The translations under genes were made by a program, and so were the position numbers. This document shows, in pieces, positions 12,878 to 60,929 of a DNA stretch of 64,000 nt. The notes below the pieces were generated by a model. The model was not told where the DNA came from, made no database searches, and saw only the letters and a program-made list of their open reading frames with translations. Within the stretch, counting starts at the first letter, position 1. Every line of letters begins with the position of its first letter. Source of the stretch: Candidatus Acidiferrum sp. (GTDB lineage Bacteria; Acidobacteriota; Terriglobia; Acidiferrales; UBA7541); assembly GCA_035314425.1 (NCBI GenBank), contig DATFZN010000114.1:4232-68231 (forward strand). The letters are read 5' to 3'.

Positions 12878-13038
12878 GATGGAGTTCCTTTCCTACCCCG
12901 AGAAGGGCGTCGACTGGTCGTATCGAGGAAGACAGTCTACACGAGGGTTGCCTCGATCTGCGAGCCCACCAAGCAAGAACAATCTTGGAGCAGCGCTGTC
13001 GATTGCATACCAGCGTAGATACAGGTAGCTTATTCGCC

Positions 13039-34040: not shown

Positions 34041-34300
34041 GCGATCCTCAGCGATGAGACAACACTCATGATTTACCCCTGGCGCGAGGTATTTGCTCGT
34101 CTAAGTGTGTCCGAACGGAGGGCTTTTGCAAATCGTCGCGAGGGCCCCAGGAGCCAAAAAGTAACTGTGAATTCAGCCAGTGGATCCGCTTGATTCAACT
34201 CAAGATGCTATTAGTGGGAAGGACAAGCGACGGTACCCGGACGACTATTTCGCTAAATCGACGTGTTACCCTGTGCCGTAGCCATCTTCAAGCGACACCT

Positions 34301-35843: not shown

Positions 35844-36292
35844 CGGTGGCCCTCTTCCGCGAGCGCGACCGGCCCGCTTGGTGCATTCGGGTCATCACCC
35901 AAAACGTAACGTAGAATCTCATACAAGACTTCCGGTTTCACCGGTTTCTGGACGAAATGCTTTGCGCCCTTTTGCAGAGCAGCCAGAATATTTTCCTGAT
36001 AGCCAACGGAAGACACCATGACAATGCGGGCGTTGGAATGTTGCCGAACGATGCGTTCGACGGCTTCAATGCCCTCCATTTGCGGCATGGTGATGTCCAT
36101 CAGCACGATGTCGGCTTTGGTGCGGTTGTACTCCGCAATGGCGGTGAGGCCATCGCCCGCCTCGCCAGCAACCTCGCCGCCGAAAAGCTCAATCATCTTG
36201 ATGAGATTTTTGCGAGCGAAGACGGAGTCGTCCACGACCAAGTAGCGGACGGGTTGATTGTCGCTCCGAAGTAAAGGTGCAAACTGTTGCAT
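35840..36292 (-). CDS. cheY: CheY-like single-domain response regulator
   Basis: Receiver motifs LVVDDS, DIVLMDITMP, MVSS and VQKP. Confidence 0.85.
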   Translation of the reverse strand: MQQFAPLLRSDNQPVRYLVVDDSVFARKNLIKMIELFGGEVAGEAGDGLTAIAEYNRTKADIVLMDITMPQMEGIEAVERIVRQHSNARIVMVSSVGYQENILAALQKGAKHFVQKPVKPEVLYEILRYVLGDDPNAPSGPVALAEEGHR

Positions 36293-36319
36293 AAACTTCT
36301 CCTTTGGCCCCGCACGTCG

Positions 36320-37471: not shown

Positions 37472-39561
37472 GCGATGGCTCCAAGTGGAATGGCACGAGA
37501 CAATCTCGAAAGAATTGCCGGAACGCTCAGAATCAAAACGACCGTGCCGTCGCCGAGGATCGAAGCACCACTGACGAGGTCGCTCGAGACGATTTCCCCT
37601 GGTAGAGCTTTTATGACCAATTCTTCTTCTCCAACCATGGTGTCGACCAGCAGGCCAAACCGTTTTTCAGCAATTCCAATCACAATTACAAAGCTTTTTT
37701 TCTTTAAAAGACTGCTCGGCTCGACAGAATGGATCCCTTTGATGGAGTTCAACCGGACGAGTGTCAAGATCTGGTCCCGTAGACGGAGGACTTCCCGCTG
37801 GTCGACACGCTGAATCTCTTGATCAGAGATGCGCGTGATTTCCACGACCGCGGAAAGCGGTACGGCAAATAATCGCCCGCCCACTCGAAACAAAAGAGTC
37901 TGAATGCTGGCAAGGGTCAAGGGGACGCGTAGAAGCATGGTCGTTCCCTTTTTTTTCGAGCTGGAAACGTGGACTGTACCCTTCAGCCGATCGAGAACGG
38001 TCCGGACCACGTCCATGCCAACGCCGCGGCCGGAGATTTCGGTGATTTCACTTGCGGTGCTGAAGCCGGATTCGAAGATGAGATTCAAAACGTCTGGCTC
38101 AGTTAAACGGTCGGCATCTTCTTTTTTGATCAGCCCACTGCGAACGGCCTGGGCCCGGATGAGATCGAGGTCAATCCCGCGACCATCGTCACGGACTTCA
38201 ATGACAACTTGGGTTCCTTGATGATACGCGTTCAGGTAAACAGTGCCGCGTGCGGGCTTGCCCGCGTTCAGGCGCTCCTCGGCAGGTTCGATGCCGTGGT
38301 CGACTGCGTTGCGGACGAGGTGAGTCAGTGGCTCTGCAAGAGCATCCAAAATGCTTTTGTCGAGGTCGGTATGTTCGCCTGCAACCTCGAGCGCGATATC
38401 TTTGCCGCAAAGTTTTGCGACATCTCGAACCACTCGTGGGAAGCGTCGGAACAACTGTTCGACTGGAACCATACGAATCTTCAAGACGCATTTGTGCAAT
38501 TCATCGAGAATGCGCGATTGGAAAGCCAGTGTTTCAGCCAACTTTGCGCGAACCGGATCGCGTGCGTGGTCTACATCAAATTCGGCAAGGGTCCGGTTGA
38601 GCATGGATTTGCCGATGATGAGTTCGCCGACGAGGTTCATCACGGCATCGATGCGAGAGGAATCGACGCGCAGTGAACTCTCGGCAAGTGCCGCGACAGC
38701 GGAAGAACCAGACTGACCCTTGGCTTCAATTGCCGCAGAGTCTGACCTGGTAGCGTGTTCCACAGCTTGTGCTTCCAGAATATCTCCCAAAAGCTGATGT
38801 TCGGCGCCTTCATCCTGAGCGGCATTCTCGATTCGGACATCGGAGACGATCGAGGGGATACGGCAGCGATGCGAAACGTGGTCCATGGGATGAGTACTGG
38901 CAACGGCTGCTTCGACAATGTCGACTTGGGAGGCAGCGAGGTTGTCCTCTGGGCGGAGGGCGATGACCGTGCCACAAGCGTGAAGTACATTGCGAACGAG
39001 TTGAAATGCCGCAGCTCGCATGGCGCTGTCCGGGTCGATGCGCAATGCAATGTTGTAAACGCTACTCCCGTTCAGCCGGGCTTCAGAGATCATCAGCCGT
39101 TCGTACTCGCTCCATTGAAACTCCGCAGGGACCATGCCCATTTGCCGATTGGGCTTTACACATTTTTCTGCAGGGGACTCGAGAAGCCCGTGAATCAGAA
39201 GCCGTAAGGCTGCCGGCGCTGGGGGTTCGATTTGCCGCTGGTAGCAGCTCAACATATTTTCAAAGGTGTCGACGGAAGAAAGGATAGCTTCAGCGAGTTG
39301 TACACCCTGCGACTGGCTAATCTGCAGGGTCAAGACATCCTCAAGTTCATGAGCAATTTCACTCAATTTGCTAAAGCCACATGCGGCGGAGTCACCTTTT
39401 AGAGTGTGAATTGCACGGCGCAGGCTACGCAAAAGCTCCTCATCGGCGGGATGCTTCTCGAGTCTTAAACCAGAATCATTGATGGTCTGCAGAAGTTCCG
39501 ACGCACTCTCAAAAAAGAGCGCGCGAAGCTCCGAATTCCGTTCATCGGGCAGGAAACTCAA
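37468..39561 (-). CDS. cheA: Chemotaxis histidine kinase CheA (Hpt-dimerisation-HATPase-CheW)
   Basis: Hpt AIHTLKGDSA; HLVRNAVDHGIE, DDGRGID and GRGVGMDVV; C-terminal CheW-like domain. Confidence 0.95.
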   Translation of the reverse strand: MSFLPDERNSELRALFFESASELLQTINDSGLRLEKHPADEELLRSLRRAIHTLKGDSAACGFSKLSEIAHELEDVLTLQISQSQGVQLAEAILSSVDTFENMLSCYQRQIEPPAPAALRLLIHGLLESPAEKCVKPNRQMGMVPAEFQWSEYERLMISEARLNGSSVYNIALRIDPDSAMRAAAFQLVRNVLHACGTVIALRPEDNLAASQVDIVEAAVASTHPMDHVSHRCRIPSIVSDVRIENAAQDEGAEHQLLGDILEAQAVEHATRSDSAAIEAKGQSGSSAVAALAESSLRVDSSRIDAVMNLVGELIIGKSMLNRTLAEFDVDHARDPVRAKLAETLAFQSRILDELHKCVLKIRMVPVEQLFRRFPRVVRDVAKLCGKDIALEVAGEHTDLDKSILDALAEPLTHLVRNAVDHGIEPAEERLNAGKPARGTVYLNAYHQGTQVVIEVRDDGRGIDLDLIRAQAVRSGLIKKEDADRLTEPDVLNLIFESGFSTASEITEISGRGVGMDVVRTVLDRLKGTVHVSSSKKKGTTMLLRVPLTLASIQTLLFRVGGRLFAVPLSAVVEITRISDQEIQRVDQREVLRLRDQILTLVRLNSIKGIHSVEPSSLLKKKSFVIVIGIAEKRFGLLVDTMVGEEELVIKALPGEIVSSDLVSGASILGDGTVVLILSVPAILSRLSRAIPLGAIA

Positions 39562-40463
39562 GAATTATCCTCGATTCGCTTATAGGCAGTGCCGTTATTT
39601 TCGTGAACCATCTTGAATTTCTGGGTCAATCCGAAAAGGCTCTCGGCGTGGCCGACGAATAAGTAGCCACCCGGATTCAAGCAATGCCAGAACTTTTCGA
39701 TCAAACGCTTTTGTTCTGCTTCATCGAAATAGATCATGACGTTGCGGCAAAGGATGATGTCGTTGCGGCGGGGCAAAAACTCGGTCTTGAGATTATGGAA
39801 GTCGAATTGGACCAAATCCTTGAGCTGTTTCTTTACCGCGTACCTATCGCTGGACTTTTCGAAATAGCGCAGACGAGTGGTGTAATCCACTGGTTCCATC
39901 TGAATTTCTGTATAAAGACCTTCCTGACCAGTGCGCAAGCTTGCGTAGCTGATGTCGGAGGCGACAATTTCCAGCTTCCAAGGAGGCGGAATCATCGGCT
40001 TCGGCGAAGGCATCTCGAACGGCAATGGATTCCGCAGGTAGTAGTACGCCAACGCATCGCAAATCAGAATGGCCACGGAATATGGTTCCTGGCCTGCAGA
40101 ACAACCCGCGCTCCAAACCCGCAAATTCCAGTCGCGCCGTTCTTGTTTACGGTGAAGAATTTCTTCCAAAACATTCTTTTGCAGGAGATCGAGTTGCGGA
40201 CGATTGCGAAAAAAACTGGTTTCGTTAACAGTTAAATTTTCAAGCAGAAGGGCGAGTTCGGCTCTTCCCTCGCGACTGGTCAAAAGGCGGTAATAGCTGT
40301 AAAAGGACTCGATTTGACACGCCTTCAGTCTCCGCTGCAGGCGGTCTTTCAGGAAGTGCGAGCGGCGTTCATCGAAATACATGCCGCATTCCTGATAGAC
40401 GAGGGTCTGGAGGAGTTTTAGTTCTGCTTCAGTAAGCTGAACCTGCGCAGTGATCGTTCCCAT
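39558..40463 (-). CDS. cheR: Chemotaxis methyltransferase CheR
   Basis: N-terminal helical CheR domain, ETSFFRN, and SAM-binding VWSAGCSAGQEPYS. Confidence 0.95.
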   Translation of the reverse strand: MGTITAQVQLTEAELKLLQTLVYQECGMYFDERRSHFLKDRLQRRLKACQIESFYSYYRLLTSREGRAELALLLENLTVNETSFFRNRPQLDLLQKNVLEEILHRKQERRDWNLRVWSAGCSAGQEPYSVAILICDALAYYYLRNPLPFEMPSPKPMIPPPWKLEIVASDISYASLRTGQEGLYTEIQMEPVDYTTRLRYFEKSSDRYAVKKQLKDLVQFDFHNLKTEFLPRRNDIILCRNVMIYFDEAEQKRLIEKFWHCLNPGGYLFVGHAESLFGLTQKFKMVHENNGTAYKRIEDNS

Positions 40464-40517
40464 AATGTAGGTGCGTCGAGCCTTTCGAACGGTAACATTT
40501 CCAAGATTTTTGGAAAT

Positions 40518-41003
40518 CTATGTCGGAATTGCGACCGGCTCCGCGGCCTCCTCGAGCTTCTTGAATTCCGGTTGACGCAGAAGACGCGGAATATCCAAGA
40601 TGATGACCAGCCGGCCTTTTAACTTTCCGACTCCGGTGACGTAGCTGGACTCACCCTCCGCGAAAACGGTACCCGGTGCTTCGATTTCCGAGGGTGGAAT
40701 TTTCAAAACCTCCGAAGCGGAGCTAACGATCAGGCCCAGAAGTTTATTCCCCAATTCCACAACCAGAATTCGATTTCGCTTATCGCTTTTGACATCTTTG
40801 TCGCCAAACCGCTTACGCAGATCCATAACCGGAATAATCTTCCCGCGAAGATTGATCACCCCTTCGATGGCTTCAGGTGCATTGGGCACCGAAGTAATTT
40901 CCGGGACGCGGACAATTTCCCGCACGGAAGCGATACGCACCCCGTACGTTTCATTGCCGATCCGAAATCCGACTACTTGATGGTCTTTCTCCATGGTTCG
41001 CAC
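40518..41003 (-). CDS. cheW: CheW coupling protein
   Basis: Motifs ..VVGFRIGNETYGVRIASVREIV.. and INLRGKIIPVMDLR. 161 aa. Confidence 0.9.
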   Translation of the reverse strand: MRTMEKDHQVVGFRIGNETYGVRIASVREIVRVPEITSVPNAPEAIEGVINLRGKIIPVMDLRKRFGDKDVKSDKRNRILVVELGNKLLGLIVSSASEVLKIPPSEIEAPGTVFAEGESSYVTGVGKLKGRLVIILDIPRLLRQPEFKKLEEAAEPVAIPT

Positions 41004-41009
41004 TGTTTC

Positions 41010-43019
41010 TTAGGACTGGCTCACTTCGGCGTATTCGAATTCATTTGCACCAGACTGTGAAGAGCGACGATGGCTAGGGATTGCGTCGCGACGATGGCGA
41101 ACTTGCCCGGCGCGATCGATGACAAACTGGTCCATATTGTCCAGAAGATTTCTGGAAAGCTTCAACATTTGCTCGGCGGCAGCCGAAAGCTCCGTTGAAC
41201 TGGAAGCCGATTGCTGAACGAGTTCACGCATCTTGTCCATGGCGCGGACAACGGCTTGCGCACCGGAAGCCTGCTCTTCAACCGCGGAACTGATCTCCTG
41301 GGTAATTTCGGTGAGGCGATTGGTCGCCTTGGCAATCTGCGAAGAACCCACAGACTGCTCGTTGGTGGCTGCGCCGATTTCCTGAGAAAACTTGTAGACC
41401 TCCGTAACCACATCAGAGATTTTGTGGAGTGCCGTGCCCAGGTCATTTCCAAAGCCCAAACCTTCTTCCACGATCCGCGTACTCTGTTCCATGTTTTCGA
41501 CCGCCTGACGAGCCTCGCGCTGAATGCTCTGAATCAGGTCCGCGATTTCTTTCGTTGATTGTGTGGACTTTTCCGCTAGTTTCCGAACTTCGTCGGCGAC
41601 GACGGCAAATCCGAGTCCATGTTCGCCGGCGCGGGCGGCTTCGATCGCAGCGTTCAACGCCAGAAGATTGGTTTGTTCGGCAAGGTCATCGATGACTTCA
41701 ATGATTTTTCCGATGTCATCGGCGCGGTGACCAAGAATATTGATGATTTCCGCGGAAGACTGGATGGAACGGTTAGTGCGATTCAAGCCATCGGTGGTCT
41801 TCTCCATGGTGGCAATGCCAGTGACCACCTCTTCTCTCGAACGGTTCGCGATATCCAGAAGAACTTTGGCGGTATCTGCAACGCGCTGGATCGAAGTGAC
41901 CATCTGATCGATGGAAGCCGAGGTTTCTGCAACGCTGCTAGCCTGCACCTGCGTGTTCTTCACGACGTTTTGAACGTTTACGCTCATCTCATGCATCGTG
42001 CTGGTCACTTCCTCAATGGCGGAAGAAGCTTGCACGCTGACCTTGGCCGATTCATCGGCAGCGCCGGCGACTTGGTTGGACCCGGCGGATACTTGCGAAG
42101 CGCCGTCGCGGGTGGAGCGAACAATCTGTTGGAGTCCATGCGACATGCGCGCGAACGCGTTGCCGAGCGTGTCGCGCTTGGATCGCGGAGCGACTTCGAT
42201 GGTCAAATCGCCTTCGGCAACCGCCATGGAAACGGTGGCCATTTCCTTCAGATACGCGACCATGTTGTTGAAAGTGGTGGCCAGCGCGCCGATTTCGTCG
42301 TTGCGATGGATATCAATGTTCTGGTCCAGGTCCCCGGCATCGCCAATCTCGCGGGCCACAGCAATCAAATGCTGGAGAGGTTCGGTGATGGATTTTGCCG
42401 TGCGCACTGCGGTGATGCCGATGAATATCATGGCGCAAAGTGTTCCCACGAGGATAAAGATCAAACTGACGGTGCTGGCGCGGCGGGCCGCATCCTGAGA
42501 ATCGCTGAGGGCTTTACTCATGTCCGTATTGGCCTGATCGAGAACTGTGGAAGACTTGGTGAGCCAGGAAGACGGATCTTTCTGAAGATAGAAAATCTGT
42601 AGATCAGAAACGGTGGCATCGCCAGAATCAACTTGGTGCCGCTTGGCAAGCAGAGGTTTCGCAAAATTATCTGCCCAATTGGCTTCGGTGCTCTCGACCT
42701 GAATCAGAGCAGTGCGTAGAAAGTCGTTGTTTGTCTGCGACTGGGCACGCTTGACCAAATCACTCAGTTCGGAGAATCCGCGGTTAACTTTTTCTTCGTC
42801 GCGTGGATCGCCGCTCAGTAGAAAATTATTCAGGTTCAAGCGGTTGATCATGATCTGATAACGCGCCGCTTCTGCGGTGCGCACACTCTCAAGTGTGGAT
42901 GCGGCTTCAGCACTGGCCGACCGCGCTTTCCAAATGGTGGCGAGGTCAACCATCAAGAGAATGGCGAGAATCGCCAGGATCGCCCCGAAACTTCGATATA
43001 GTCGATTTCCGATCGTCAT
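41010..43019 (-). CDS. Methyl-accepting chemotaxis protein with CHASE3-like periplasmic domain and HAMP
   Basis: Conserved hairpin [36 protein letters not shown]. Two TM segments bracket an approximately 170-aa domain with NNFLLSGDPRDEEKV (CHASE3-like). ATG 43019 is preceded by GGAGGAAG. Confidence 0.9.
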   Translation of the reverse strand: MTIGNRLYRSFGAILAILAILLMVDLATIWKARSASAEAASTLESVRTAEAARYQIMINRLNLNNFLLSGDPRDEEKVNRGFSELSDLVKRAQSQTNNDFLRTALIQVESTEANWADNFAKPLLAKRHQVDSGDATVSDLQIFYLQKDPSSWLTKSSTVLDQANTDMSKALSDSQDAARRASTVSLIFILVGTLCAMIFIGITAVRTAKSITEPLQHLIAVAREIGDAGDLDQNIDIHRNDEIGALATTFNNMVAYLKEMATVSMAVAEGDLTIEVAPRSKRDTLGNAFARMSHGLQQIVRSTRDGASQVSAGSNQVAGAADESAKVSVQASSAIEEVTSTMHEMSVNVQNVVKNTQVQASSVAETSASIDQMVTSIQRVADTAKVLLDIANRSREEVVTGIATMEKTTDGLNRTNRSIQSSAEIINILGHRADDIGKIIEVIDDLAEQTNLLALNAAIEAARAGEHGLGFAVVADEVRKLAEKSTQSTKEIADLIQSIQREARQAVENMEQSTRIVEEGLGFGNDLGTALHKISDVVTEVYKFSQEIGAATNEQSVGSSQIAKATNRLTEITQEISSAVEEQASGAQAVVRAMDKMRELVQQSASSSTELSAAAEQMLKLSRNLLDNMDQFVIDRAGQVRHRRDAIPSHRRSSQSGANEFEYAEVSQS

Positions 43020-43098
43020 TGCGTCACTTCCTCCACTCCGCCAACCGCGCTTCGAGGCCGTGCTTCGCTCATCGGCAGCGCAAAACAAACAAATCTAA

Positions 43099-43496: not shown

Positions 43497-43794
43497 GTTC
43501 AGGGGGTTTCTGGAGAAAGTCCAAAGAACCTCGGCGGCGGCCGCAAGCCCCTCAGAGGAATGGGGATATGCTTTCGCAAAGAACGGCGCCGGTCTTTTAT
43601 TTCATGCGCCAACGTCTCAGGTACCCGCCGAAACTACGAAATGGATCTCACGCTGAGACAATTCGCTTCAAACAGGGTTAGCCCCAGGTAACGCATCCGC
43701 CGCAGCCCAAGGATGAGTGATTGACTCAGATTGAGATTGCTCAGTAGCTTTGAAGTGTGCAGTCTTAACTTGAGACAGAGAGACCTTACCCCGT

Positions 43795-46122
43795 ATGCGT
43801 GGACGAAAGACTACAACTTCTCGCCGCAGCTCCGCGGTCCGTGGCCGGACCCATTCCGGCCAGGTTGCATCTGATTACGCACAGGAATTAATGAACCTGG
43901 CGGTTGCCGCGGCAAATTCACGGGAATTGCCAGCGTTTCTTGCTGGATTTGCCTCACGCGCGGCCGAAATGCTGGACGCCCAATGGGTCGGGGTCGGCGA
44001 GATTATTGGCAGCCGAGTTGAACTGTATTCGCCGGTGCAGGAATTCCCGGCTAGCCCGGCGGTATGGGACTGGTTGCTGCTAAATATTCCCTGCAAGCGA
44101 GATAGCCTCGAGGTAGTCACGGTTCCGGCAGGCGCCGGCCACTGCGCGTTCTTTCCGATTTATGCCAGCGACGGCGAATTGATGGGCACGCTCTGCCTGC
44201 TGCGGGCTGAACCGAAGTTTTCGGCCGCGCAGGAGCGCCTCTTGACAGCCCTGGCCAGCCATGCGGCGCTTTCCATGGAGAAGGTGCGGCGCTTTTCGCA
44301 GCTGGAGCGCTCGAAGAAGCAATGGGTCGAAGATATTGATGCGATCAGCGACTATATCGTGGTGCACGACCAAAGCTGGAAAATTGTGCGCACCAACAGG
44401 ACATTGGCGACGCATCTCGGCAGGCCACCCGCGGCACTAGTCGGCGAGCCCATGGCCAACCTCCGGAATATCGCAGAAACGGGCAGCGCGCTACCCTGCC
44501 CTTTTTGCAAGAACACCAAGCAAGCACGAGAAGAATATATCGCCACGGCGGAAGGGCGCACATTTTTGGTTTCCACTTCACGAACGCCGGGAGCGGTCGA
44601 AGAAGAAACACGCACGATTCACGTACTGAAGGACATTACCGATCGCCGGGAAGCAGAGCGCCGCTACCGGGAATTATTCGACAGCATTCAAGAAGGATTG
44701 TTTTTTGCCACGCCGGATGGACAATTCTTGGATGTGAATGATGCCATGGTTCGTATGTTAGGTTACGATTCGCGCGAAGAGTTGTTGCGCGCGGACGTTA
44801 GCCCGCACCTTTATCCCACCGTTGCGGCCAAGGATCGGTTCGTGCGCGCGATTGCCGAGCGAGGTGCGCTGCGCAATTACGAAGAGACCCTCCGCCGAAA
44901 AGACGGCAGCCTGCTGCACACCATGCAGAACATTAGCGCGGTGCGAGATGCCCAGGGAAGAGTGGTGCAAACACGGGGATTGATGCTCGATGTGACAGAA
45001 CAAAAAATGTTTCAGTCGCAACTGCAGCGAGAGCGCGACTTTAACCAGAAAATTCTGAATACCACGCAGAGCATGATTCTGGTGTTGGATACGGCGGGAT
45101 TGATCAGCTACGTGAATAAGCGGTGCTACGAAGCGGGATATAAGGAAGAAGAGCTCATCGGTCACCGGCTCGAGAATTGGATCGACTTCTCGCATCGGAT
45201 TGACTTCGAAGCCGCTTTGCAGACCACGGCACTTGGCCACCAGGTAGAAAATTTGGAATTGCGCGTCGCCCGAAGCGATGGATCGATGGGACATTTTTCG
45301 ATCAGCCTCAGCCCTATGCGCGATGAGTCGAAGCAGGTAAACAGCGTTGTCGTGGTAATGACGGACATCACCGACGCAGCTTTGCTGCAGGCAAAACTCG
45401 CCCATTCCGAAAAGATGGCAACAATTGGGCAATTGGTTTCTGGCGTGGCGCATGAAGTGAACAACCCGCTGGCGGCTATCTTAGGATTTACCGATTTGTT
45501 GCTGGAAAACCCGGAGGTGCCAGAAGCCGCGCGAGAAGATCTGCGGATTATTCTGCAGGAAACTCAGCGCACGAAAGAGATTGTCCAGGATCTTTTGAGT
45601 TTCGCGCGCCAGCGTCCGGCACAGCGCGAAGCGGTCCAAATCAACGCCATTCTCCGACAGACAATCAAGCTCCGGAGTTACGATTTTTCGAGCCACGGGG
45701 TGGAGGTGGTGGAGGAATTTGACGAGAGTATTGCTCCAACACTGGGCGACGGACAACAGCTGCAACAAGTCTTTCTCAATATATTGAACAACGCGTACGA
45801 TGCCATACAAGAGTCCGGAAATCACGGACAGATTCGCATACGGACACGCCGGACACAGGATTCGGTGGAGGTGGCCTTTATCGATAATGGCATTGGCCTT
45901 ACCGAGCCGGAACGGATCTTTGATCCATTTTTCACGACCAAGCAGGTAGGAAAAGGCACTGGCCTCGGGCTGAGCATTTGTTACGGCATTGTGCGGGCCC
46001 ACGGCGGAGAAATTCTTTGTTGGAACAACGCCCAAGATTCTGGAAGCACGTTCGTCGTGCGATTGCCGCAAACCTCCGAATCAGCATTGGCAGCTGCTGC
46101 AGCGAAAGAGGCATCGCGATGA
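43795..46122 (+). CDS. Cytoplasmic sensor histidine kinase (GAF + three PAS-like + HisKA + HATPase)
   Basis: No TM segments. H-box VAHEVNNPL, N-box NILNNAYDA and G-boxes DNGIG / KGTGLGLSICYGIV. PAS-like segments begin near residues 185, 290 and 420. Confidence 0.9.
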   Translation: MRGRKTTTSRRSSAVRGRTHSGQVASDYAQELMNLAVAAANSRELPAFLAGFASRAAEMLDAQWVGVGEIIGSRVELYSPVQEFPASPAVWDWLLLNIPCKRDSLEVVTVPAGAGHCAFFPIYASDGELMGTLCLLRAEPKFSAAQERLLTALASHAALSMEKVRRFSQLERSKKQWVEDIDAISDYIVVHDQSWKIVRTNRTLATHLGRPPAALVGEPMANLRNIAETGSALPCPFCKNTKQAREEYIATAEGRTFLVSTSRTPGAVEEETRTIHVLKDITDRREAERRYRELFDSIQEGLFFATPDGQFLDVNDAMVRMLGYDSREELLRADVSPHLYPTVAAKDRFVRAIAERGALRNYEETLRRKDGSLLHTMQNISAVRDAQGRVVQTRGLMLDVTEQKMFQSQLQRERDFNQKILNTTQSMILVLDTAGLISYVNKRCYEAGYKEEELIGHRLENWIDFSHRIDFEAALQTTALGHQVENLELRVARSDGSMGHFSISLSPMRDESKQVNSVVVVMTDITDAALLQAKLAHSEKMATIGQLVSGVAHEVNNPLAAILGFTDLLLENPEVPEAAREDLRIILQETQRTKEIVQDLLSFARQRPAQREAVQINAILRQTIKLRSYDFSSHGVEVVEEFDESIAPTLGDGQQLQQVFLNILNNAYDAIQESGNHGQIRIRTRRTQDSVEVAFIDNGIGLTEPERIFDPFFTTKQVGKGTGLGLSICYGIVRAHGGEILCWNNAQDSGSTFVVRLPQTSESALAAAAAKEASR

Positions 46123-46517
46123 GCGTTCGAACGGAGACGAAAGTCTTGGCGCCTATTCTGCTCATTGAAGATGAGGATTCTGTGCGCGCGTTTGTGCGCT
46201 CGGCGCTCGAGCGTCGTGGATATTCTGTCGTGCAGGCATCATCGGGCACGCAAGGGGTAGAGCAACTGGCCTCGGCACACTATGCCGGGGTGATTTCCGA
46301 CATTCGCATGCCCGGCAAGGTCAACGGCGCGGATATTCATCAATGGATACAAAAGAATCGACCAGAATTAGCGGAGAGAATCATTTTGATCAGTGGCGAT
46401 ACAGCGAATAGCGAAACGCAGTCATTGCTTCGTGGTAGTTCCACACCTTGCATTGAAAAACCGTTTCGTGTTCAACACTTGATTTCTATCGTGGAGAAGA
46501 CATTCGGAAAACCATGA
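46119..46517 (+). CDS. Single-domain response regulator (canonical receiver)
   Basis: Motifs ILLIEDED, VISDIRMP, LISGD and IEKPF. ATGA overlaps with both neighbouring genes. The ORF-track start at 45978 lies inside the kinase gene. Confidence 0.85.
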   Translation: MSVRTETKVLAPILLIEDEDSVRAFVRSALERRGYSVVQASSGTQGVEQLASAHYAGVISDIRMPGKVNGADIHQWIQKNRPELAERIILISGDTANSETQSLLRGSSTPCIEKPFRVQHLISIVEKTFGKP

Positions 46518-47938
46518 GCGACGACCTAAAAACCAAACTTCTGGTAGTGGACGATGAGCAGAGCATCCGTAAGCTGTGCATGACCATCGGAAACTCGTTG
46601 GGCTTTTTATGCCATGAAGCCGAGAGCGCAGAGATTGCTGCCACGCGACTAGAAACCGATCCGCCTGACCTGGTACTGACGGACTTAAAGCTCCCCAATC
46701 AGTCTGGTGTGGAATTGCTGAAACAGATTCGCACTGTTTTGCCTCGGGCCGAAATTGCCATCATGACCGGACACGGTTCGATTGAGTCTGCAGTCGATGC
46801 GATGAAACTCGGCGCATACGACTATATCGAAAAGCCCTTTCGAGTCGAGAAGTTGCGGCTCTTGCTGCAACGCATGGCCGAAAAGGTGCGCTTGGTAAAT
46901 GAAAACGCCTTCTTGCGCGAACGAGTCAACACCGAGGAAAACGTGGATGGGATTATCGGCAGTTCCTCGGCGATGCAAGATGTTCTGCGAATGATTTCGC
47001 GGTTGAAAGACACCCGGACACCCGTCCTGATTTCAGGGGAAAGCGGCACGGGAAAAGAACTGGTTGCACGCGCCATTCACTTCCGCGGAGCCATGGCCCA
47101 GACCCCGTTTGTGGCGGTGGATTGCGGTTCGTTGGTCCCCACACTGATGGAAAGCGAACTTTTTGGTTATGAGAAAGGCGCATTTACCGGTGCCACAAAA
47201 TCTAAATCCGGATTGTTCGCCTCTGCAAACGGCGGAAGCATATTCCTCGATGAAATCGGGGAAATTCCGCTGGAGATGCAGGCAAAACTCCTTCGCGTGT
47301 TGCAGGAGAAAGAGGTGCGGCCGGTTGGTAGCAACGATCGGGTCAGCATCGACGTTCGCGTGATTGCGGCAACCAATCGAGATTTGGAAGCTGCCTATCG
47401 CGACGGAACGTTTCGAAAGGACCTCTATTTCCGATTGAACGTGGTTACCGTTCATTTGCCTCCGCTGCGGGACAGGCGTTCGGATATTCCTGTCCTCGTC
47501 CATTATTTTTTGAATCGCTACGCGCCCGGCGCGCATGTACATGTAACCCCTGCGGCGATGAAGAGCCTGCTGCAATACGACTGGCCAGGCAATGTGCGTG
47601 AACTAGAGAATTGTGTCGCCCGCGCATTGACGCTCGGCGATCAAGAGGTCATCGATGTAAAGGACTTGCCACCTGCCATTCGAGCGGAACAAAGCCTCAC
47701 CCAGAGCCTGGCAGTGGAGGAGGCGAGCTCCCTTTCCACCACGGCGTTGGCGGAGATGGAAAAAATGACTATTTTGCGCGTTTTCGAGCAAGCACACGGA
47801 GACAAAGCACTGGCTGGAAAAATGTTGGGAATCAGCCGTGCCACGCTCTACAGAAAATTAAAGCGATACAATATTCCACCCCGCGGCAGCACGGAACAGA
47901 TTGAAAAAGAGGCGGAAATCCATTCGGTAGAACAATGA
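46514..47938 (+). CDS. Sigma-54-dependent transcriptional activator (NtrC family: REC + AAA+ + Fis-type HTH)
   Basis: Walker A GESGTGKE, the sigma-54 contact loop GAFTGA, and the C-terminal HTH GISRATLYRKLKRY. Confidence 0.95.
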   Translation: MSDDLKTKLLVVDDEQSIRKLCMTIGNSLGFLCHEAESAEIAATRLETDPPDLVLTDLKLPNQSGVELLKQIRTVLPRAEIAIMTGHGSIESAVDAMKLGAYDYIEKPFRVEKLRLLLQRMAEKVRLVNENAFLRERVNTEENVDGIIGSSSAMQDVLRMISRLKDTRTPVLISGESGTGKELVARAIHFRGAMAQTPFVAVDCGSLVPTLMESELFGYEKGAFTGATKSKSGLFASANGGSIFLDEIGEIPLEMQAKLLRVLQEKEVRPVGSNDRVSIDVRVIAATNRDLEAAYRDGTFRKDLYFRLNVVTVHLPPLRDRRSDIPVLVHYFLNRYAPGAHVHVTPAAMKSLLQYDWPGNVRELENCVARALTLGDQEVIDVKDLPPAIRAEQSLTQSLAVEEASSLSTTALAEMEKMTILRVFEQAHGDKALAGKMLGISRATLYRKLKRYNIPPRGSTEQIEKEAEIHSVEQ

Positions 47939-48095
47939 GCCGTCTCACGCGGTAGCGGCCGGGGATCAAAGTTTCAAATTGCAAGTGAGACACAATCGTT
48001 TCAGTGTGAGACTCAGGTCACTAATTAGGCCCGAAGGAAGTTTTTAAGCTCTTTTGTTTCTGTTACATTCCTGAAAATCAGACCAACTCAGATTT

Positions 48096-48112
48096 TGGTT
48101 CTCGGCGTGCAT
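48096..48112 (+). promoter_or_regulatory. Sigma-54-like -24/-12 element (TGGTTCTCGGCGTGCAT)
   Basis: GG (48097-98) and GC (48109-10) are at consensus spacing with T at -14. It lies 73 nt upstream of ATG 48185, which is preceded by GAGGGA. It shares the CGTGCAT -12 box with 50772..50788. Confidence 0.5.
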
Positions 48113-48184: not shown

Positions 48185-48517
48185 ATGTCGCTGATCGCCG
48201 ATGAACGCGAATGCGCAAAACAATTGGCAAAGTTTTTTCCGGACTTGCCTGCAACTCGCTTCCTGGTCCGAGTGCAATCTGCTAGGCCCGGTCGAGAGAA
48301 ACTGCAGGAATCGACGGTAGTCGAATTTGGCATGGGGCAATTCGCAATCTTCACGACATCGCTACCGCTGGAGTTTGATGAACGCATCCGATTGGTTCAG
48401 CACAGTGGGGGGAAGCCGGTGGAAGCGGAAGTGATTGCTTTGCAATATCACGAAGGAATGAAAGCAGTGGCCGTGCGGTTTGTGGAAGGCACCTGGGACT
48501 GGATAATGCAGCCGTGA
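48185..48517 (+). CDS. Hypothetical small protein (beta-rich; faint PilZ-like pattern without c-di-GMP motifs)
   Basis: Good SD. The stop overlaps the next start (GTGA). No recognisable catalytic or binding motif. Confidence 0.6.
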   Translation: MSLIADERECAKQLAKFFPDLPATRFLVRVQSARPGREKLQESTVVEFGMGQFAIFTTSLPLEFDERIRLVQHSGGKPVEAEVIALQYHEGMKAVAVRFVEGTWDWIMQP

Positions 48518-49959
48518 ACAAAATGATAACAACATTAAATTTGCAAGCACCTCAGAAGCCAGATAACTCGCGAAATGCGCAATGGGAAGAAAACCGCTCG
48601 GTTTTTCCCATTTACATCGCGCTGGCCAAGCACCTTCAAATTGAAATTCCGTTTCCGCAAAACAAGCGCGTTTTGCCGGAGAAGGCGGAACTTGAACTGT
48701 TCACTCAGGTTGATACCTGGCTAAATGCCATGGATCAACAAGTGATGGTGCATCAATTGCGCCACCTTCTTCAGATGACTACGCTGAACGCCAGCGAAAG
48801 CGGCTTGCGCGGGCTGATCATGCGACATCTGAAGAAATCCGGCAAGACTCTCGCGGATCGAGACAAGATTGATTTCCTATTGGTTCAATACTTCGCGCTC
48901 TGCGCCCCGGCTAAAATCTTTCACAAGCAAATCGAACTGGTGGACGTGGCGCAGGTCATGAAACCTGTTTTTGGTGAGGTGAGCACAGCGCCGCTGCCGT
49001 GGTGTGAGCCGCTTGAAAAAATGATTCATTCTCTGCGAACCTTCAAGAGCCTGCGCGATATTCTGAAAACCAATTTTATCGAACAAGGGCGGCGGGTAAA
49101 AGAAACCGCAGGCAATATGTTCTACGATCCGAGTGCCATGTTGGCTTTTGTGCAATTCAATTTCCTCTTGCGCCGGACACTTATCGAGTTGATGCACGCA
49201 GATTTGATCTACATCCGATCCGGGATCAATCATCTGGAAACTGCTGGTGCCAAGACCATCGATTGTCAATCCTTTGGATTGACAGCGTCTGAACCGGTTG
49301 CGAAGGTTCGCCAATATGCCGACGAATGGAAGCAGCCATTCCAGAAGGAATACACCGAACGGTCCGTGAATCAGGCTTTCGACAAGCTTCTGGCTCTGCG
49401 CGCGGACATCGAGCGCGCCGTTGAAAAGGTCTTGGGGAAGCCACTTGAGCCAGCTCCTGCGTCCACTTCAGGGGCAAAACTCGAGCCCCATTCGCCAGCA
49501 AAGGCTGCAGAGGTCAAAACGTCTCCGGCGGCAATAATGAATGAATCTGCAGAACCAGAGCTGGACTTCGAATCCTGTATGGAACAGATTTGGGAGCAGC
49601 TTATCTCCGCACCGCCCTCTCGAGGACGTTCCATGACCACTGTAAAGGTGGGAGGCGCGCGAGTGCTGATGTCTTCCTGGGAAGTGACTGCGTTTGTCAG
49701 TGAAGATGGTTCCGCGGCGGAAGATCTACGACGCGCCGTGGTTGCGCGCGCAATGGTCACCGCAGCCACGGAAAAAGCGAAGACTTCACCCACGACGGCC
49801 AATCTCGAGCGCGTACTCCCTATTGCCCGGGTCGAAGTTTCGCGCTTGCAGGAACGCGTGGAACTAGCCAAACAAGCCAAGGACACAGAAGCTGCCGTGA
49901 ATCTGGGCATCAGCACGAAGAGATTGCTGTCCGCTTTAGACGAAGCCGAGAAGCTTTGA
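48514..49959 (+). CDS. Hypothetical 481-aa soluble protein (helical N-domain, Pro/Ala/Ser linker, C-terminal coiled-coil-rich domain)
   Basis: Long uninterrupted ORF, co-directional and translationally coupled. No TM segment, signal peptide or known motif recognised. Confidence 0.7.
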   Translation: MNKMITTLNLQAPQKPDNSRNAQWEENRSVFPIYIALAKHLQIEIPFPQNKRVLPEKAELELFTQVDTWLNAMDQQVMVHQLRHLLQMTTLNASESGLRGLIMRHLKKSGKTLADRDKIDFLLVQYFALCAPAKIFHKQIELVDVAQVMKPVFGEVSTAPLPWCEPLEKMIHSLRTFKSLRDILKTNFIEQGRRVKETAGNMFYDPSAMLAFVQFNFLLRRTLIELMHADLIYIRSGINHLETAGAKTIDCQSFGLTASEPVAKVRQYADEWKQPFQKEYTERSVNQAFDKLLALRADIERAVEKVLGKPLEPAPASTSGAKLEPHSPAKAAEVKTSPAAIMNESAEPELDFESCMEQIWEQLISAPPSRGRSMTTVKVGGARVLMSSWEVTAFVSEDGSAAEDLRRAVVARAMVTAATEKAKTSPTTANLERVLPIARVEVSRLQERVELAKQAKDTEAAVNLGISTKRLLSALDEAEKL

Positions 49960-50007
49960 TTCGCTGCCAAAGAAGCTCATCAAGCGCACGGGATTCGGGA
50001 GCCCATT

Positions 50008-50691
50008 TTGCGAAACACGAGTGTCTTAATTTTGACCGACGATTCCGAGTTTGCCCGGCTGCTCAGCGCTTGTTGGCAGACAGAACGTCAATTGCCTGGC
50101 CTCTCTGTGCTCACCAGCGATTTATGGAAAGGCGGCGAGAATGTTGCCCCAGACCTGATCGTAATCGGCCCACTAAAAGAAGATAAATTCGCGAGCGTGA
50201 TGCGTTCGATCGGCTCGAACACGGCAGTTATTTTTTGCGCTACTTCCGAACACAAGGATTTTGGGCTGCTCCGCAAACGCTACCCCAGGTTACTGCACCT
50301 ACCCCTGCGTGAGGACTGGACCCAGATGATTCTCTTGCTTGCCGGTGAATCGCTAAAGCGTACGGAAGCACTCAAAATTGCGAAGCAAGCGGAACGCAAC
50401 GCCTCGCTGAGCGCCAATCAGGCGACGCTCGGCCGCTACATGATGGATATGAAACGCAATATGAACAACGCGCTGACTTCGCTGCTAGGTAACGCTGAAT
50501 TGTTGTTGCTGGAACCTGGACAACTTTCCGGGCAATCCTTGGCGCAGATAAAGACGATTCACACTATGGCCCTGCGCATCAACGAAATCGTCCAAAGATT
50601 CTCATCGCTCGCCAGTGAAATGCGGGACGCTGAGACGCCTTCTCAGAGTGAGACCGAGGAATCCATCTCGCCGCATTTTACCCCCCGATAG
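50008..50691 (+). CDS. Pseudo-receiver + HisKA/DHp-like domain with Lys in place of the phospho-His; no ATPase domain
   Basis: TTG start preceded by GGGAG. VLILTDDSEF...DLIVIGP is a receiver fold with Gly at the phospho-Asp position. LGRYMMDMKRNMNNALTSLLGNAELLLLE aligns with IGQLVSGVAHEVNNPLAAILGFTDLLLEN of the kinase at 43795, with H replaced by K. Confidence 0.7.
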   Translation: MRNTSVLILTDDSEFARLLSACWQTERQLPGLSVLTSDLWKGGENVAPDLIVIGPLKEDKFASVMRSIGSNTAVIFCATSEHKDFGLLRKRYPRLLHLPLREDWTQMILLLAGESLKRTEALKIAKQAERNASLSANQATLGRYMMDMKRNMNNALTSLLGNAELLLLEPGQLSGQSLAQIKTIHTMALRINEIVQRFSSLASEMRDAETPSQSETEESISPHFTPR

Positions 50692-50771: not shown

Positions 50772-50788
50772 TGGCTGTCAACGTGCAT
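50772..50788 (+). promoter_or_regulatory. Sigma-54-like -24/-12 element (TGGCTGTCAACGTGCAT)
   Basis: GG (50773-74) and GC (50785-86) are at consensus spacing, with the same CGTGCAT -12 box as 48096..48112. It lies immediately upstream of the first gene of chemosensory cluster 2. Confidence 0.5.
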
Positions 50789-50797
50789 TTTTCTACT

Positions 50798-51187
50798 ATG
50801 GAGAAGTACGCGGAGCAACTGCACGTGCCCAAAATAGTGCTGATCGTCGATGATTCACCCGCTCAGGTGAAGCTGATTCAAGGGCTTCTCGAGCCCGAAG
50901 GTTATTGCCCAGTGGGCTTGAGTGACCCAAAACGCGTGGAGGAGATGATCACCTCAGAGCGGCCGAGTGTGATTTTGCTCGATGTAGTGATGCCCGAGCG
51001 AAACGGGTTTCAGGTATGCCGGGAATTGAAAAGCAGCAACGACTTCAATTCTATCCCGGTCATCCTGGTCACCTCCAAAGACACAGCAAGCGATCGTTAC
51101 TGGGGAGAGCAGCAGGGTGCCGACGGTTACGTAACAAAACCCTTCACACGGGAAGAATTATTGCGCGCGGTTCGACGGTTTGCGTAA
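50798..51187 (+). CDS. Single-domain response regulator (PilG/PilH position)
   Basis: Motifs VLIVDDS, VILLDVVMP, LVTSK and VTKPF. The start is uncertain. The ORF-track GTG 50783 lies inside the -12 box, and ATG 50798 would be nearly leaderless. GTG 50825 has GGAG 9 nt upstream. Confidence 0.85.
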   Translation: MEKYAEQLHVPKIVLIVDDSPAQVKLIQGLLEPEGYCPVGLSDPKRVEEMITSERPSVILLDVVMPERNGFQVCRELKSSNDFNSIPVILVTSKDTASDRYWGEQQGADGYVTKPFTREELLRAVRRFA

Positions 51188-59320: not shown

Positions 59321-60102
59321 TCTTTCCTGGAAAACCCGCCAAGATTCTACTGATTGACAGCAACGTGCTTTTTGCCAAGCGCCTTGGCGATGCCCTGAAA
59401 CGAGAGGGCTTTGAGGTCATTTCGACAACGCAAGCGGCATTTGCTTTGACAACCTTGGAGTACGACGCTCCATCAGCAATCGTGTGTTCCAGCAGTATGC
59501 GCGAAATGGGCGCATTGGAGTTGGCAAAAGTCGTTCGTGCAGATGCAAAGAACGCCAACCTACCGATTATCGCGATGGGTGACGGCAGCCAGAGGGCGTT
59601 GATGGAGGCCTTTCAAGCTGGATGCGATGATTACATCGATCGCCATCTTTCGCCCGCGACCATCGCCAATCACATCAAGAACATCGTCGTCAGCAAGATT
59701 GATGGCTTCCAGCCAACTCAAATGCTGGGTCAGGCGGACACCAGCTTAAGTGGAAATTTGACCCACCACGACCTCACCGGAGTGATGCAAATGCTTGGTC
59801 AGGCTCACCAAACTGGCGCGTTAACGATCAACGCCGGTGACACGGATGCGGTGATATTTTTTGACGCCGGTGAGATTACCCACGCGGAGTGCGGATCGCT
59901 GTTTGGCGATGAAGCTGTGCTGCATATCCTGAAAAACTGCGTGCAGTGTGGCAACGGAGTTTACAAGTTTGTTTACGGTGCTGCTTCCGGGCAGCGCACC
60001 GTTTTGCGCTCAGCCACGGACCTTATGTTGGACGCCATGCGCGAGTATGACGAAGTGGTTCGCGACATGAGCGACGATTTCGCGGACAAGGAGGCTCAAT
60101 GA
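59317..60102 (+). CDS. Pseudo-receiver + DUF4388 (PATAN-type) domain protein
   Basis: Receiver fold with Ser at the phospho-Asp position (AIVCSSSMREMG), and T87 and K109 equivalents also replaced. The C-terminal LSGNLTHHDLTGVMQMLGQAHQTGALTINAGDTDAVIFFDAGEITHAE..GDEAV..IL matches the DUF4388 pattern. The start is at 59317 (ATGA overlap), not the ORF-track 59200. Confidence 0.75.
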   Translation: MIFPGKPAKILLIDSNVLFAKRLGDALKREGFEVISTTQAAFALTTLEYDAPSAIVCSSSMREMGALELAKVVRADAKNANLPIIAMGDGSQRALMEAFQAGCDDYIDRHLSPATIANHIKNIVVSKIDGFQPTQMLGQADTSLSGNLTHHDLTGVMQMLGQAHQTGALTINAGDTDAVIFFDAGEITHAECGSLFGDEAVLHILKNCVQCGNGVYKFVYGAASGQRTVLRSATDLMLDAMREYDEVVRDMSDDFADKEAQ

Positions 60103-60929
60103 GCGAAACCATCGCTATGCCACCCCTCGGGACGGTCGAAAAAGGGCATGTTCCCACAGTTTATTTCATAGATGACAGCGCCACGATGCGCGAAGTCATC
60201 AAGATCGCGTTTCGTCGCGAGAACATTCACGTCATCACCTGCGCCGAGGCATCTTCCGCGCTGGGGCAATTCGATGAACATCCCCCGGATATCGTCATCA
60301 CGGATGTAATCATGCCGGATCAGGACGGCTACTCGGTCTGCAGCCAGATCAAACAGAATCCTCTCTACGCAAAGATTCCTGTAATCCTCATGTCCGGCGT
60401 CGTGAACAAGAATGTTGCGGATCGCGCGGTAGCCGTGCAAGCCGATGAGCTGGTACGCAAGCCGTTTCAGCCGCAGGAGCTGATCGCTCGCGTGAAAAAT
60501 CTTCTAGGCCAATCGAATCCGCGGCCGCAGCCCAAAGAAGAGCATTCTCCTGCTGTGCCGTCGCTCAGCAATTTATTTTCGGCTGCACCCTCAAATCCAC
60601 CGGCCGCACTGCGCCTGGTTCCGGTACCACCTCTGGTTCCCACGCCTCCGCCAAACGAACCCCCGCCGCCGGATTCGGTTTGGCCGCGGGCACTTGCGGA
60701 AGCATTTCTGCAGCAAAATCCCGGTGCCCCGCCGCAGCAACCTGCGCAGCCGGTGACCAGCCCTCCTGCCGCTCGCCCAAATGCCACCCCGGCCGATGCC
60801 ATCAGATTGCGAGCGGAAATTGCCCGCCTTGACCTACTCGTCAAGAAACTGCAAACCGAACTCCAGATCGAGCGGCAATATAATCAAGCGCTGGAGTTGC
60901 ACGTGCGCAGCTTGATTCAGATCGATTGA
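60099..60929 (+). CDS. Response regulator: canonical receiver + approximately 100-aa Pro-rich low-complexity region + short C-terminal coiled coil
   Basis: Motifs YFIDDS, DIVITDVIMP, LMSG and VRKPF, then PRPQPKEE...PPPNEPPPPD...PPQQPAQPVTSPPAARP, then RLRAEIARLDLLVKKLQTELQIERQYNQALE. Confidence 0.8.
   Translation: MSETIAMPPLGTVEKGHVPTVYFIDDSATMREVIKIAFRRENIHVITCAEASSALGQFDEHPPDIVITDVIMPDQDGYSVCSQIKQNPLYAKIPVILMSGVVNKNVADRAVAVQADELVRKPFQPQELIARVKNLLGQSNPRPQPKEEHSPAVPSLSNLFSAAPSNPPAALRLVPVPPLVPTPPPNEPPPPDSVWPRALAEAFLQQNPGAPPQQPAQPVTSPPAARPNATPADAIRLRAEIARLDLLVKKLQTELQIERQYNQALELHVRSLIQID

Follow-up and report, generated by a model that had tools for sequence, protein, structure and literature searches.

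A conserved three-gene module, probably sigma-54 dependent, within a chemosensory and two-component supercluster of Acidobacteriota

Introduction

Among described chemosensory systems, those closest to the locus reported here are Pil-Chp of Pseudomonas aeruginosa, the cyanobacterial Pix/Tax systems and Che3 of Myxococcus xanthus, the last of which works with CrdS/CrdA, an NtrC-like two-component system (PMC3147164). The locus lies in a stretch of 64,000 nucleotides from Candidatus Acidiferrum sp. (Acidobacteriota, Terriglobia, Acidiferrales; assembly GCA_035314425.1, contig DATFZN010000114.1, positions 4,232 to 68,231 of the forward strand), which we call the window and in which all positions are numbered. 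Three adjacent genes, g1, g2 and g3, are placed there between the gene of an NtrC-type sigma-54 activator and a chemosensory cluster, cluster 2; a complete che cluster, cluster 1, lies further upstream. We find that g1-g2-g3 form, with high probability, a conserved sigma-54-dependent accessory operon of a supercluster of che and two-component genes in Terriglobia.

Cluster 2 shares with Pil-Chp and Pix/Tax the order CheY-CheW-MCP-CheR-CheA-CheB, a CheA that combines two Hpt domains with a C-terminal receiver, and the protein joining a receiver (REC) to a PATAN domain that follows. Unlike those systems it is accompanied by no type IV pilus genes in the 64-kb window, and the pilus-type label that we give to cluster 2 rests on gene order and CheA domains. 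The accessory proteins FimL, FimV and ChpC-E of these systems are, we presume, unrelated to g1-g3. In Che3 a che cluster likewise stands beside a histidine kinase (HK) and a sigma-54 activator, the activator being a signalling node (PMC3147164). In contrast to Che3, cluster 1 of the window has its own CheY and CheX, which rules it out as a CheY-less analogue of that system, and a second che cluster follows downstream; nor does Che3 have a counterpart of g1-g2-g3.

At the level of single proteins, MapZ is a lone PilZ protein acting on the chemosensory component CheR1, as outlined in PMC6370697. In CrdS, two homologs and HK853, the acidic residue next to the phosphorylated His (His+1) is needed for kinase activity alone and the Asn or Thr at His+4 for phosphatase activity alone, and a His to Ala mutant retains most phosphatase activity (Willett and Kirby, PMC3510030). 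The same paper cites phosphatase activity of the EnvZ DHp domain without the catalytic domain, and in its outline of CrdS and EnvZ the His is dispensable for most of that activity (PMC3510030). In ShkA a pseudo-receiver beside a DHp domain binds cyclic di-GMP (c-di-GMP), according to the outline given in PMC7010744. Che3 with CrdS/CrdA, MapZ with CheR1, the DHp-only phosphatase and the ShkA pseudo-receiver are precedents for the overall logic of the module, and none of them has this gene set. Literature searches brought up no functional study that deals with the module or with signalling in the lineage, and the novelty lies in a chemosensory and two-component accessory module built around an orphan family, g2.

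Results

The initial annotation, read from the letters of the window, had reported open reading frames (ORFs) of 110, 481 and 227 amino acids, the first two joined by a GTGA overlap and the last two separated by 48 nt. They are present exactly so:

48185-48517, + strand: g1, 110 amino acids, ATG start with AAGGA 4 nt upstream
48514-49959, + strand: g2, 481 amino acids, GTG start overlapping the g1 TGA as GTGA
50008-50691, + strand: g3, 227 amino acids, TTG start with GGGAG upstream, 48 nt after g2

That the three proteins have no transmembrane segment or signal peptide is likewise borne out, as the maximum Kyte-Doolittle score over 19 residues is 1.07-1.26 and no signal-peptide-like N-terminus was found in g1, g2 or g3. 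No curated family of Pfam or NCBIfam matches any of them above its cut-off; the scans of g1-g3 returned one sub-threshold HisKA match, in g3, and nothing else.

The conservation of the locus was followed in two scans. The genome scan, of one genome per GTDB species, gave at least 590 confirmed matches, of which the 80 best were analysed; these loci come from metagenome-assembled genomes (MAGs) of Acidoferrales/Acidobacteriota and their g2 is 66-87% identical to the window copy. The metagenome scan used distant g2 homologs as seeds and added 80 further loci, with g2 30-77% identical to the window copy. The counts below take in loci with enough flank. Across the 80 genome loci, as far as the contigs reach, the order HK-response regulator (RR)-NtrC-g1-g2-g3-CheY-CheW-MCP-CheR-CheA-CheB-REC/PATAN holds, the exceptions being a few gaps (e.g. 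L006, L076), and the gene order persists at 30-36% g2 identity.

che genes downstream: 75/75 loci in the genome scan, 50/50 in the metagenome scan (125/125 together)
NtrC gene upstream: 76/79 and 44/47
g1 present: 79/80 and 56/67
g3 present: 78/78 and 47/62

The association with chemosensory genes that had been expected from the window therefore holds in these loci, the genes that follow the module being CheY and CheW, and fails for a few distant copies of g2 that stand alone. The most distant g2 representatives (28-35% identity) were looked up one by one; g2 stands alone in unrelated contexts at L087 to L090, one of them in a Terriglobia MAG, and at L177 and L178. Neither g1 nor g3 is found at L095, L104 and L160. 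The constant core of the module is thus g2; some lineages dispense with g1, and some with g3. An overlap of the g1 stop codon with an in-frame g2 start, in the form (G/A/T)TGA, recurs in 141/152 loci. The three ORFs are real genes under selection, and g1 and g2 are translationally coupled.

Two observations on the provenance of these loci may be added. L003 and L004 are two contigs of one MAG (MFD02134.bin.3.246), each with the whole supercluster and with g2 85% and 83% identical to the window copy, which points to a duplicated supercluster or a mixed-strain bin. Five loci (L024, L027, L029, L037, L065) come from SMAG TPA assemblies under the titles Eremiobacteraceae, Verrucomicrobiia, Eisenbacteria or Dormiibacterota; their g2 is 67-76% identical to the window copy and their gene order is that of Acidoferrales, and the odd titles probably reflect mis-binning or mislabelling and not horizontal transfer.

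The module is flanked by two sigma-54-type elements, and repeats of one hexamer stand upstream of both of them and of the HK operon:

48096-48111, + strand: P1, sigma-54-type -24/-12 element TGGTTCTCGGCGTGCA, 89 nt upstream of g1, with GG-N10-GC spacing
50772-50787, + strand: P2, sigma-54-type -24/-12 element TGGCTGTCAACGTGCA, for chemosensory cluster 2
47942-48012: upstream-activator-like repeats at P1 (GTCTCA at 47942, TGAGAC at 47986 and 48007), 90-155 nt upstream of the -24 element
50631-50654: TGAGAC twice (50631 and 50649), in coding sequence at the 3' end of g3 and ahead of P2 by about 125-140 nt
43614-43659: GTCTCA/TGAGAC pair upstream of the PAS histidine-kinase operon

By itself a loose sigma-54 pattern shows no enrichment in the window (15 occurrences, 10.5 expected); what counts is positional conservation. 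P1 recurs as TGG-N9-TGC at a fixed position in all 80 genome-scan loci, with an invariant TGG and (C)GTGCA and a variable spacer; 79 of these loci have the element 117-140 nt ahead of g1, and the remaining one, L076, has an element where g1 went undetected. P2 is kept as TGGC(C/T)GCTGACGTGCA just upstream of CheY in 78/78 genome-scan loci that reach CheY. The pair of sigma-54-like promoters said to flank the module is accordingly present and conserved at fixed position in every related locus covering the region. In divergent loci without g1 and/or g3, a canonical TGGC-N8-TTGC element with 2-3 TGAGAC repeats is found directly upstream of g2; in the deeply divergent g1-less ones its form, TGGC-N8-TTGC(T/A), is more canonical than that of P1 and the repeats lie 80-110 nt upstream of it. 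Extra DNA of 1.5-4.8 kb separates the NtrC gene from P1 in L016, L019, L023, L026, L027 and L031. The insert in L019 (6851-9109) codes for a Ser/Thr kinase with TPR repeats and that in L031 (5562-8312) for an Ig-domain protein; the promoter and g1-g3 are left untouched, and that P1 stays attached to g1 in the face of such foreign DNA argues for an independent promoter.

The hexamer TGAGAC/GTCTCA emerged as the core from unbiased 7-mer counting upstream of both P1 and P2. Its background is 0.13 sites per 210 nt, whereas at least 2 sites, at about -155, -110 and -88 from P1, occur in 127/141 loci; the repeats are kept in deeply divergent loci too. For P2, 126/133 loci have TGAGAC at about -130 and -145. 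The HK operon is preceded by at least 2 TGAGAC/GTCTCA sites at fixed positions in 97/105 related loci, which suggests autoregulation of the two-component system. Clusters of the hexamer (within 80 nt) are found at three places alone in the 64-kb window, upstream of P1, of P2 and of the HK operon. A further TGAGAC/GTCTCA motif was noted at about 43770, upstream of the PAS-kinase operon; no -24/-12 element was seen ahead of that operon. The conservation of both sigma-54-like promoters together with their common upstream repeats supports the co-expression of the module with the chemosensory system that the initial annotation had considered probable.

Around the module we found no sigma-70-like promoter on the + strand, and terminator-like hairpins were no more frequent there than in shuffled sequence. 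A riboswitch in the g1 leader was looked for in Rfam at E <= 1 and rejected, as nothing relevant was returned. The mechanical start of the CheY ORF behind P2, GTG 50783, falls inside the promoter element. The CheY leader is conserved (GGAGAAC ... GCGGAG Shine-Dalgarno, 8-10 nt, then GTG CAG AAA AAA), and this leader, with in-frame stops upstream in other loci, locates the true start at GTG 50825. The identical CheY sequence is called at 134, 129 or 120 amino acids in public gene annotations.

Database searches with the core protein, g2, gave more than 3697 homologs, and the best 120 of these are at least 75% identical to it; every one is unnamed or 'hypothetical', and none carries a Pfam domain. 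At 50% clustering, 565 relatives were found among 1.84 billion cluster representatives, 230 of them at E <= 1e-30. An AlphaFold2 (AF2) model built on 48 diverse homologs (28-71% identity) reached a predicted local distance difference test score (pLDDT) of 87.9 and a predicted template-modelling score (pTM) of 0.70. In it, residues 16-307 form an all-alpha N-domain, which is basic (pI 9.0), residues 308-351 a disordered Pro/Ala/Ser linker of variable length, and residues 352-481 a C-domain consisting of a helix, a beta-hairpin, a short helix and three long helices. A helical N-domain and a Pro/Ala/Ser linker had been described before and are recovered in the model; for the coiled-coil-rich C-terminus of that description, the label 'helical bundle' is the better fit to the modelled C-domain. 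Both domains are well conserved and the linker poorly, and because linker length varies the homologs range from 446 to 785 amino acids. R83, R220 and E390 are invariant in the 48-homolog alignment, and W24, Y34, W69, D74, R116, K118, D120, Y126, R193, K196, N216, D250, W272 and Y280 nearly so; the same positions are invariant in the stand-alone clade as in che-linked homologs.

Confident homology to a characterised family, which would have told against the initial annotation, was found for none of the three proteins, and g2 drew a blank in Pfam, NCBIfam, the PADLOC defence models, the PDB and BFVD. Foldseek searches with the whole AF2 model found no fold match in the PDB (best E 0.22) or in BFVD (best E 0.022), with template-modelling scores (TM) of at most 0.2 in both, and against PDB sequences neither the single sequence nor the 48-sequence profile gave anything. 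Pfam scans of the 48 diverse homologs and of 10 long ones (600-785 amino acids) revealed no fused or hidden domains, and no catalytic motif was found in g2. As a degenerate, FimL-like Hpt protein g2 was considered and rejected, since hhalign of its profile against 43 Hpt domains of these loci gave a probability of 0.14%.

For g1, 47 homologs were found. Its AF2 model (23-sequence alignment, pLDDT 82.6) has an N-terminal helix followed by six strands in a split beta-barrel, in keeping with the beta-rich protein that had been predicted. The fold check on the AlphaFold models, which for g2 yielded nothing, here yielded a weak PilZ-fold match: the top Foldseek matches in the PDB are dominated by PilZ domains (MotI/DgrA 5vx6, Alg44 4rt1, BcsA 4p00, PA0012 8u0i and YcgR 5y6f), with probabilities of 0.97-1.00, E of 6e-3 to 8e-2 and TM of 0.44-0.6. 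Pfam PilZ (PF07238) was found in 0/23 g1 homologs, even at E <= 10. Of the c-di-GMP motifs, RxxxR before strand 1 is not kept (R25 is invariant, position 29 is R/Q/N/L), nor is (D/N)xSxxG, in whose place stands E47-(F/Y)-(G/A/C/S)-x-x-(Q/E) with neither the Ser nor the Gly position conserved. The invariant features are a LAxFFP motif in the N-terminal helix, R25, E42, E47, E63-F64 and W106. On these grounds we call g1 a degenerate PilZ-fold protein, and we do not assign it to the PilZ family.

In being small, cytoplasmic and modelled as a six-stranded split barrel, g1 resembles the single-domain PilZ adaptors (MapZ/PA4608 and PilZ/PA2960 of P. aeruginosa, MotI/DgrA of Bacillus subtilis and YcgR of Escherichia coli). 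It differs from them in having no Pfam PilZ match, an RxxxR motif cut to one invariant Arg and a replaced DxSxxG; the invariant LAxFFP helix is its own feature, and its partner appears to be g2 where the adaptors have a pilus ATPase or CheR. In its want of c-di-GMP motifs it presumably resembles the non-binding PA2960/XAC1133 type. Just beyond cluster 1, at 34190-35131, a 313-amino-acid protein carries a bona fide C-terminal PilZ domain (Pfam E 4e-13), so canonical PilZ proteins coexist with the degenerate g1 in the same genome.

Database searches with g3 gave 5836 matches at E <= 0.001; the 120 listed, at 71% identity or above, are clear orthologs, and weaker matches may reflect HisKA similarity alone. 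Residues ~135-205 are predicted to form a HisKA-type H-box and two-helix hairpin (DHp). The window copy scores E 9e-5 and 22.9 bits against Pfam HisKA, below the cut-off of 26.9, many close homologs carry a precomputed PF00512 match, and the DHp is 30% identical (E 3e-5) to that of the neighbouring HK. Neither g3 nor its 227-amino-acid homologs contain HATPase_c, and g3 ends about 25 residues past the hairpin. Against the PDB, its profile and sequence returned weak matches to the RetS DHp and to a designed alpha/beta protein, and nothing else.

The phospho-His position of the window copy is occupied by R150 (CGC, 50455-50457). A sequencing error is ruled out, as the exact R150 protein is encoded on 8 contigs, which derive from at least 6 independent samples. 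g3 had been called a pseudo-signalling protein, which is right of the window copy in that the phospho-His is missing and does not extend to the family, where the loss is lineage-specific: His is kept in 119/120 homologs from the database and, among locus copies whose H-box is recognisable, in 122/123. In the metagenome locus L155 a second, independent loss changed His to Pro, and loss in two separate lineages fits a His-independent function. The Asn at His+4 is present in 246/247 copies with a matched H-box pattern; the residue at His+1 is N/S/G in the clade of the window and Asp in a divergent clade.

The N-terminal half of g3 has a receiver-like pattern (VLILTDD ... PDLIVIGP ... VIFCATS ... 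LHxPL), in which G54 is invariant at the phospho-Asp position and V/L takes the place of the conserved Lys. Gly occupies that position in 130/130 locus copies where the motif was located, and Pfam found no Response_reg (PF00072) in this domain. From these patterns g3 is predicted to join a receiver-like domain without the phospho-Asp to a HisKA/DHp domain without an ATPase domain. Its C-terminal half resembles EnvZ domain A and CrdS as a predicted HisKA H-box hairpin with the phosphatase-specific Asn at His+4; unlike them, g3 is a natural stand-alone protein, is fused to an Asp-less receiver-like domain and has N/S/G at His+1 in its clade. The N-domain shares with the pseudo-receivers of Caulobacter ShkA (REC1), FrzS and KaiA a beta-alpha pattern and an acidic pair without the phospho-Asp and Lys, a likeness at the level of pattern, whereas no ligand motif was identified in g3 and its domain order and context differ from theirs. 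Outside the conserved supercluster, an ORF at 62928-63875 (- strand, 315 amino acids) has HATPase_c from residue 46 and a receiver with no HisKA match, and so resembles a kinase without a recognisable DHp, the converse of g3.

The genes around the module are the following:

35340-43088, - strand: che cluster 1, complete with MCP, CheW, CheR, CheA, CheB, CheY and CheX (Pfam)
35840-36292, - strand: CheY of cluster 1, which ends in this gene and CheX
35340-35843, - strand: CheX-family phosphatase of cluster 1
from 43795, divergent from cluster 1: GAF/PAS histidine kinase (Pfam)
46116-46517: single-domain RR, between the HK and the NtrC-type activator
46514-47938, + strand: NtrC-type sigma-54 enhancer-binding protein with REC, AAA+ sigma-54 interaction domain and Fis-type HTH
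50825-51187, + strand: CheY-like first gene of cluster 2, revised GTG start, 120 amino acids, Pfam Response_reg
downstream of g3: cluster 2, in the order CheY-CheW-MCP-CheR-CheA-CheB-CheW-CheW-REC/PATAN-REC
60099-60929: last gene of cluster 2, a receiver with a long Pro-rich linker and a short helical C-terminus

The protein at 46514-47938, presumed to be the activator of the g1-g3 module, matches Sigma54_activat (E 2e-69), Response_reg and HTH_8 in Pfam. In cluster 2, Pfam identifies the REC-PATAN protein as DUF4388/PatA_N and finds in CheA two Hpt stretches, H-kinase_dim, HATPase_c, CheW and a C-terminal Response_reg; the same scan of the cluster found no CheZ, CheC or CheX and no recognised phosphatase of phosphorylated CheY. 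The receiver protein that closes cluster 2 resembles the polarity regulator RomR, a likeness of architecture alone, and RomR is reported to have orthologs in Acidobacteria (PMC3441718). The remainder of the window consists of metabolic genes. A 719-amino-acid protein at 12985-15144, unrelated to the module, matches the Pfam site-specific recombinase family SpecificRecomb (E 4e-179).

Discussion

How the accessory operon works is something that we infer, as are the labels 'Pil-Chp-like' and 'output module' under which it was first presented. We put forward a composite model, tentatively, as one that may well be right and is slightly more apt to be wrong. The adjacent NtrC-type activator would bind the TGAGAC repeats and switch on the module and cluster 2 together from the sigma-54 promoters, and would probably autoregulate its own HK operon. 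g1 would be a PilZ-fold adaptor, by now without the canonical c-di-GMP motifs, and would form a stoichiometric complex with g2, a complex that is probable because the two genes are translationally coupled and PilZ-fold proteins are typically adaptors. g2 would serve as a tethered two-domain scaffold or effector core with a flexible linker, and its invariant Arg, Lys and Asp residues suggest a conserved binding site. g3, which is without an ATPase domain and retains the HisKA phosphatase Asn at His+4, would probably have a receiver domain as its partner and serve it as a kinase-less phosphatase or as a phosphoryl sink. Its likely target would be the CheY-type protein of cluster 2, the neighbouring RR/NtrC pair being the alternative; cluster 2 is favoured because it alone is without a phosphatase of the CheX/C/Z type, cluster 1 having CheX.

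Several points weigh against this model. Binding of the activator to TGAGAC is assumed, and the sites at P2 are coding sequence overlapping the conserved SQxETE tail of g3, where constraint at the protein level and at the DNA level is inseparable. The Foldseek scores behind the PilZ assignment of g1 are modest, none reaching E <= 1e-3, and flavin-reductase split barrels are interleaved with PilZ among the fold matches at similar scores. g2 offers no functional clue, and since distant g2 copies that stand alone share its invariant residues, its core activity would not be specific to chemosensing. g1 and g3 are each missing from some che-linked loci, so that neither is obligatory. The N-domain of g3 aligns in register with the seven receivers of the window (TDD / DLIVIG / CATS) at an hhalign probability of 2.9% (E 0.015), and the divergent g3 clade has a full kinase-type motif, H-D-x-x-N, which fits phosphotransfer as well as phosphatase activity. 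In addition, the receiver of the hybrid CheA could already serve as a phosphate sink. Finally, this is an uncultured lineage, and every homolog bears the annotation 'hypothetical'.

The link of the module to the HK-RR-NtrC two-component system is as tight as its link to cluster 2, and the main rival to our model, conceivable though in our judgement unlikely, is that the module serves the former and not the latter, being the primary regulon of HK-RR-NtrC and feeding back on that system. g3, as a truncated copy of an HK dimerisation domain, would then heterodimerise with the PAS kinase or dephosphorylate RR/NtrC. RetS acts on GacS through DHp contacts, and an action of g3 on the PAS kinase would resemble that. 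The position of the module directly downstream of the NtrC-type gene (76/79 and 44/47 loci) and the same TGAGAC repeats upstream of the HK operon, with the autoregulation that they suggest, are what such a regulon would lead one to find; the 30% identity between the DHp of g3 and that of the neighbouring HK, and the weak match of the g3 profile to the RetS DHp, agree with the role given to g3. M. xanthus Che3 with CrdS/CrdA is a precedent (PMC3147164), and in L179 the two-component system and g1-g2-g3 are followed by a gene on the opposite strand that is not CheY. L117 presents the opposite case, keeping g1-g2-g3 and cluster 2 with no HK, RR or NtrC in 7.6 kb upstream, and in all 125 scan loci whose flank is long enough che genes follow the module. 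On helix 1, the residues below the His also differ between the two DHp domains, AAILGF in the HK and TSLLGN in g3 (alignment read directly), and a role confined to the two-component system leaves g1 and g2 unexplained.

The presence of R83, R116, K118, D120, R193, K196, R220, D250 and E390 in che-linked and stand-alone homologs alike, the existence of the latter and the basic N-domain (pI 9.0) are also what one would expect if g2 were an enzyme or ligand-binding protein of a new family, its ligand being for example a nucleotide or a phosphorylated small molecule, with g1 as its PilZ-like regulatory subunit and shared regulation as the sole link to chemosensing. PilZ-fold proteins often partner with enzymes or motors, which would suit g1 in that role. 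This explanation we consider distinctly improbable, as g2 shows neither a catalytic motif nor a fold match to an enzyme, its all-alpha architecture with a variable disordered tether (homologs of 446-785 amino acids) is more typical of scaffolds, and no genes of small-molecule metabolism are associated with it. That the three genes are functionally unrelated passengers, held in place by the shared ancestry of close genomes, is very hard to credit: the 80 best genome loci are all from Acidoferrales at 66-87% g2 identity, so that their synteny is partly inherited and not independent evidence, but down to 30-36% g2 identity the gene order, the translational coupling, the promoter and the repeats survive the insertion or loss of neighbours, and the cis-motif is common to the flanking signalling operons alone.

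Going beyond an accessory operon of the che and two-component supercluster, one may picture g2 as founding a family with a fold unlike solved structures and as the hub of an undescribed chemosensory branch in Acidobacteria, in which g1 as a PilZ-derived adaptor and g3 as a kinase-less DHp protein would connect the sigma-54 two-component system and the pilus-type Che pathway to a new output; this wider picture we regard as doubtful.

Acidobacteriota rank with the most abundant bacteria of soil, and of their sensing and movement next to nothing is known. The module has a fixed place in a large signalling supercluster, with at least 590 matches among GTDB species representatives and thousands of metagenome sequences. 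g2, an abundant and well-folded family without a Pfam entry or structural neighbour, is a target for structure work and for the definition of a new domain, and the conserved architecture of promoter and TGAGAC repeats makes a compact, testable sigma-54 regulon. g3 would be a natural HK dimerisation domain that shed its kinase and in two lineages even lost its His. As such it offers a direct test of His-independent phosphatase or decoy functions, which are so far known mainly from engineered mutants.

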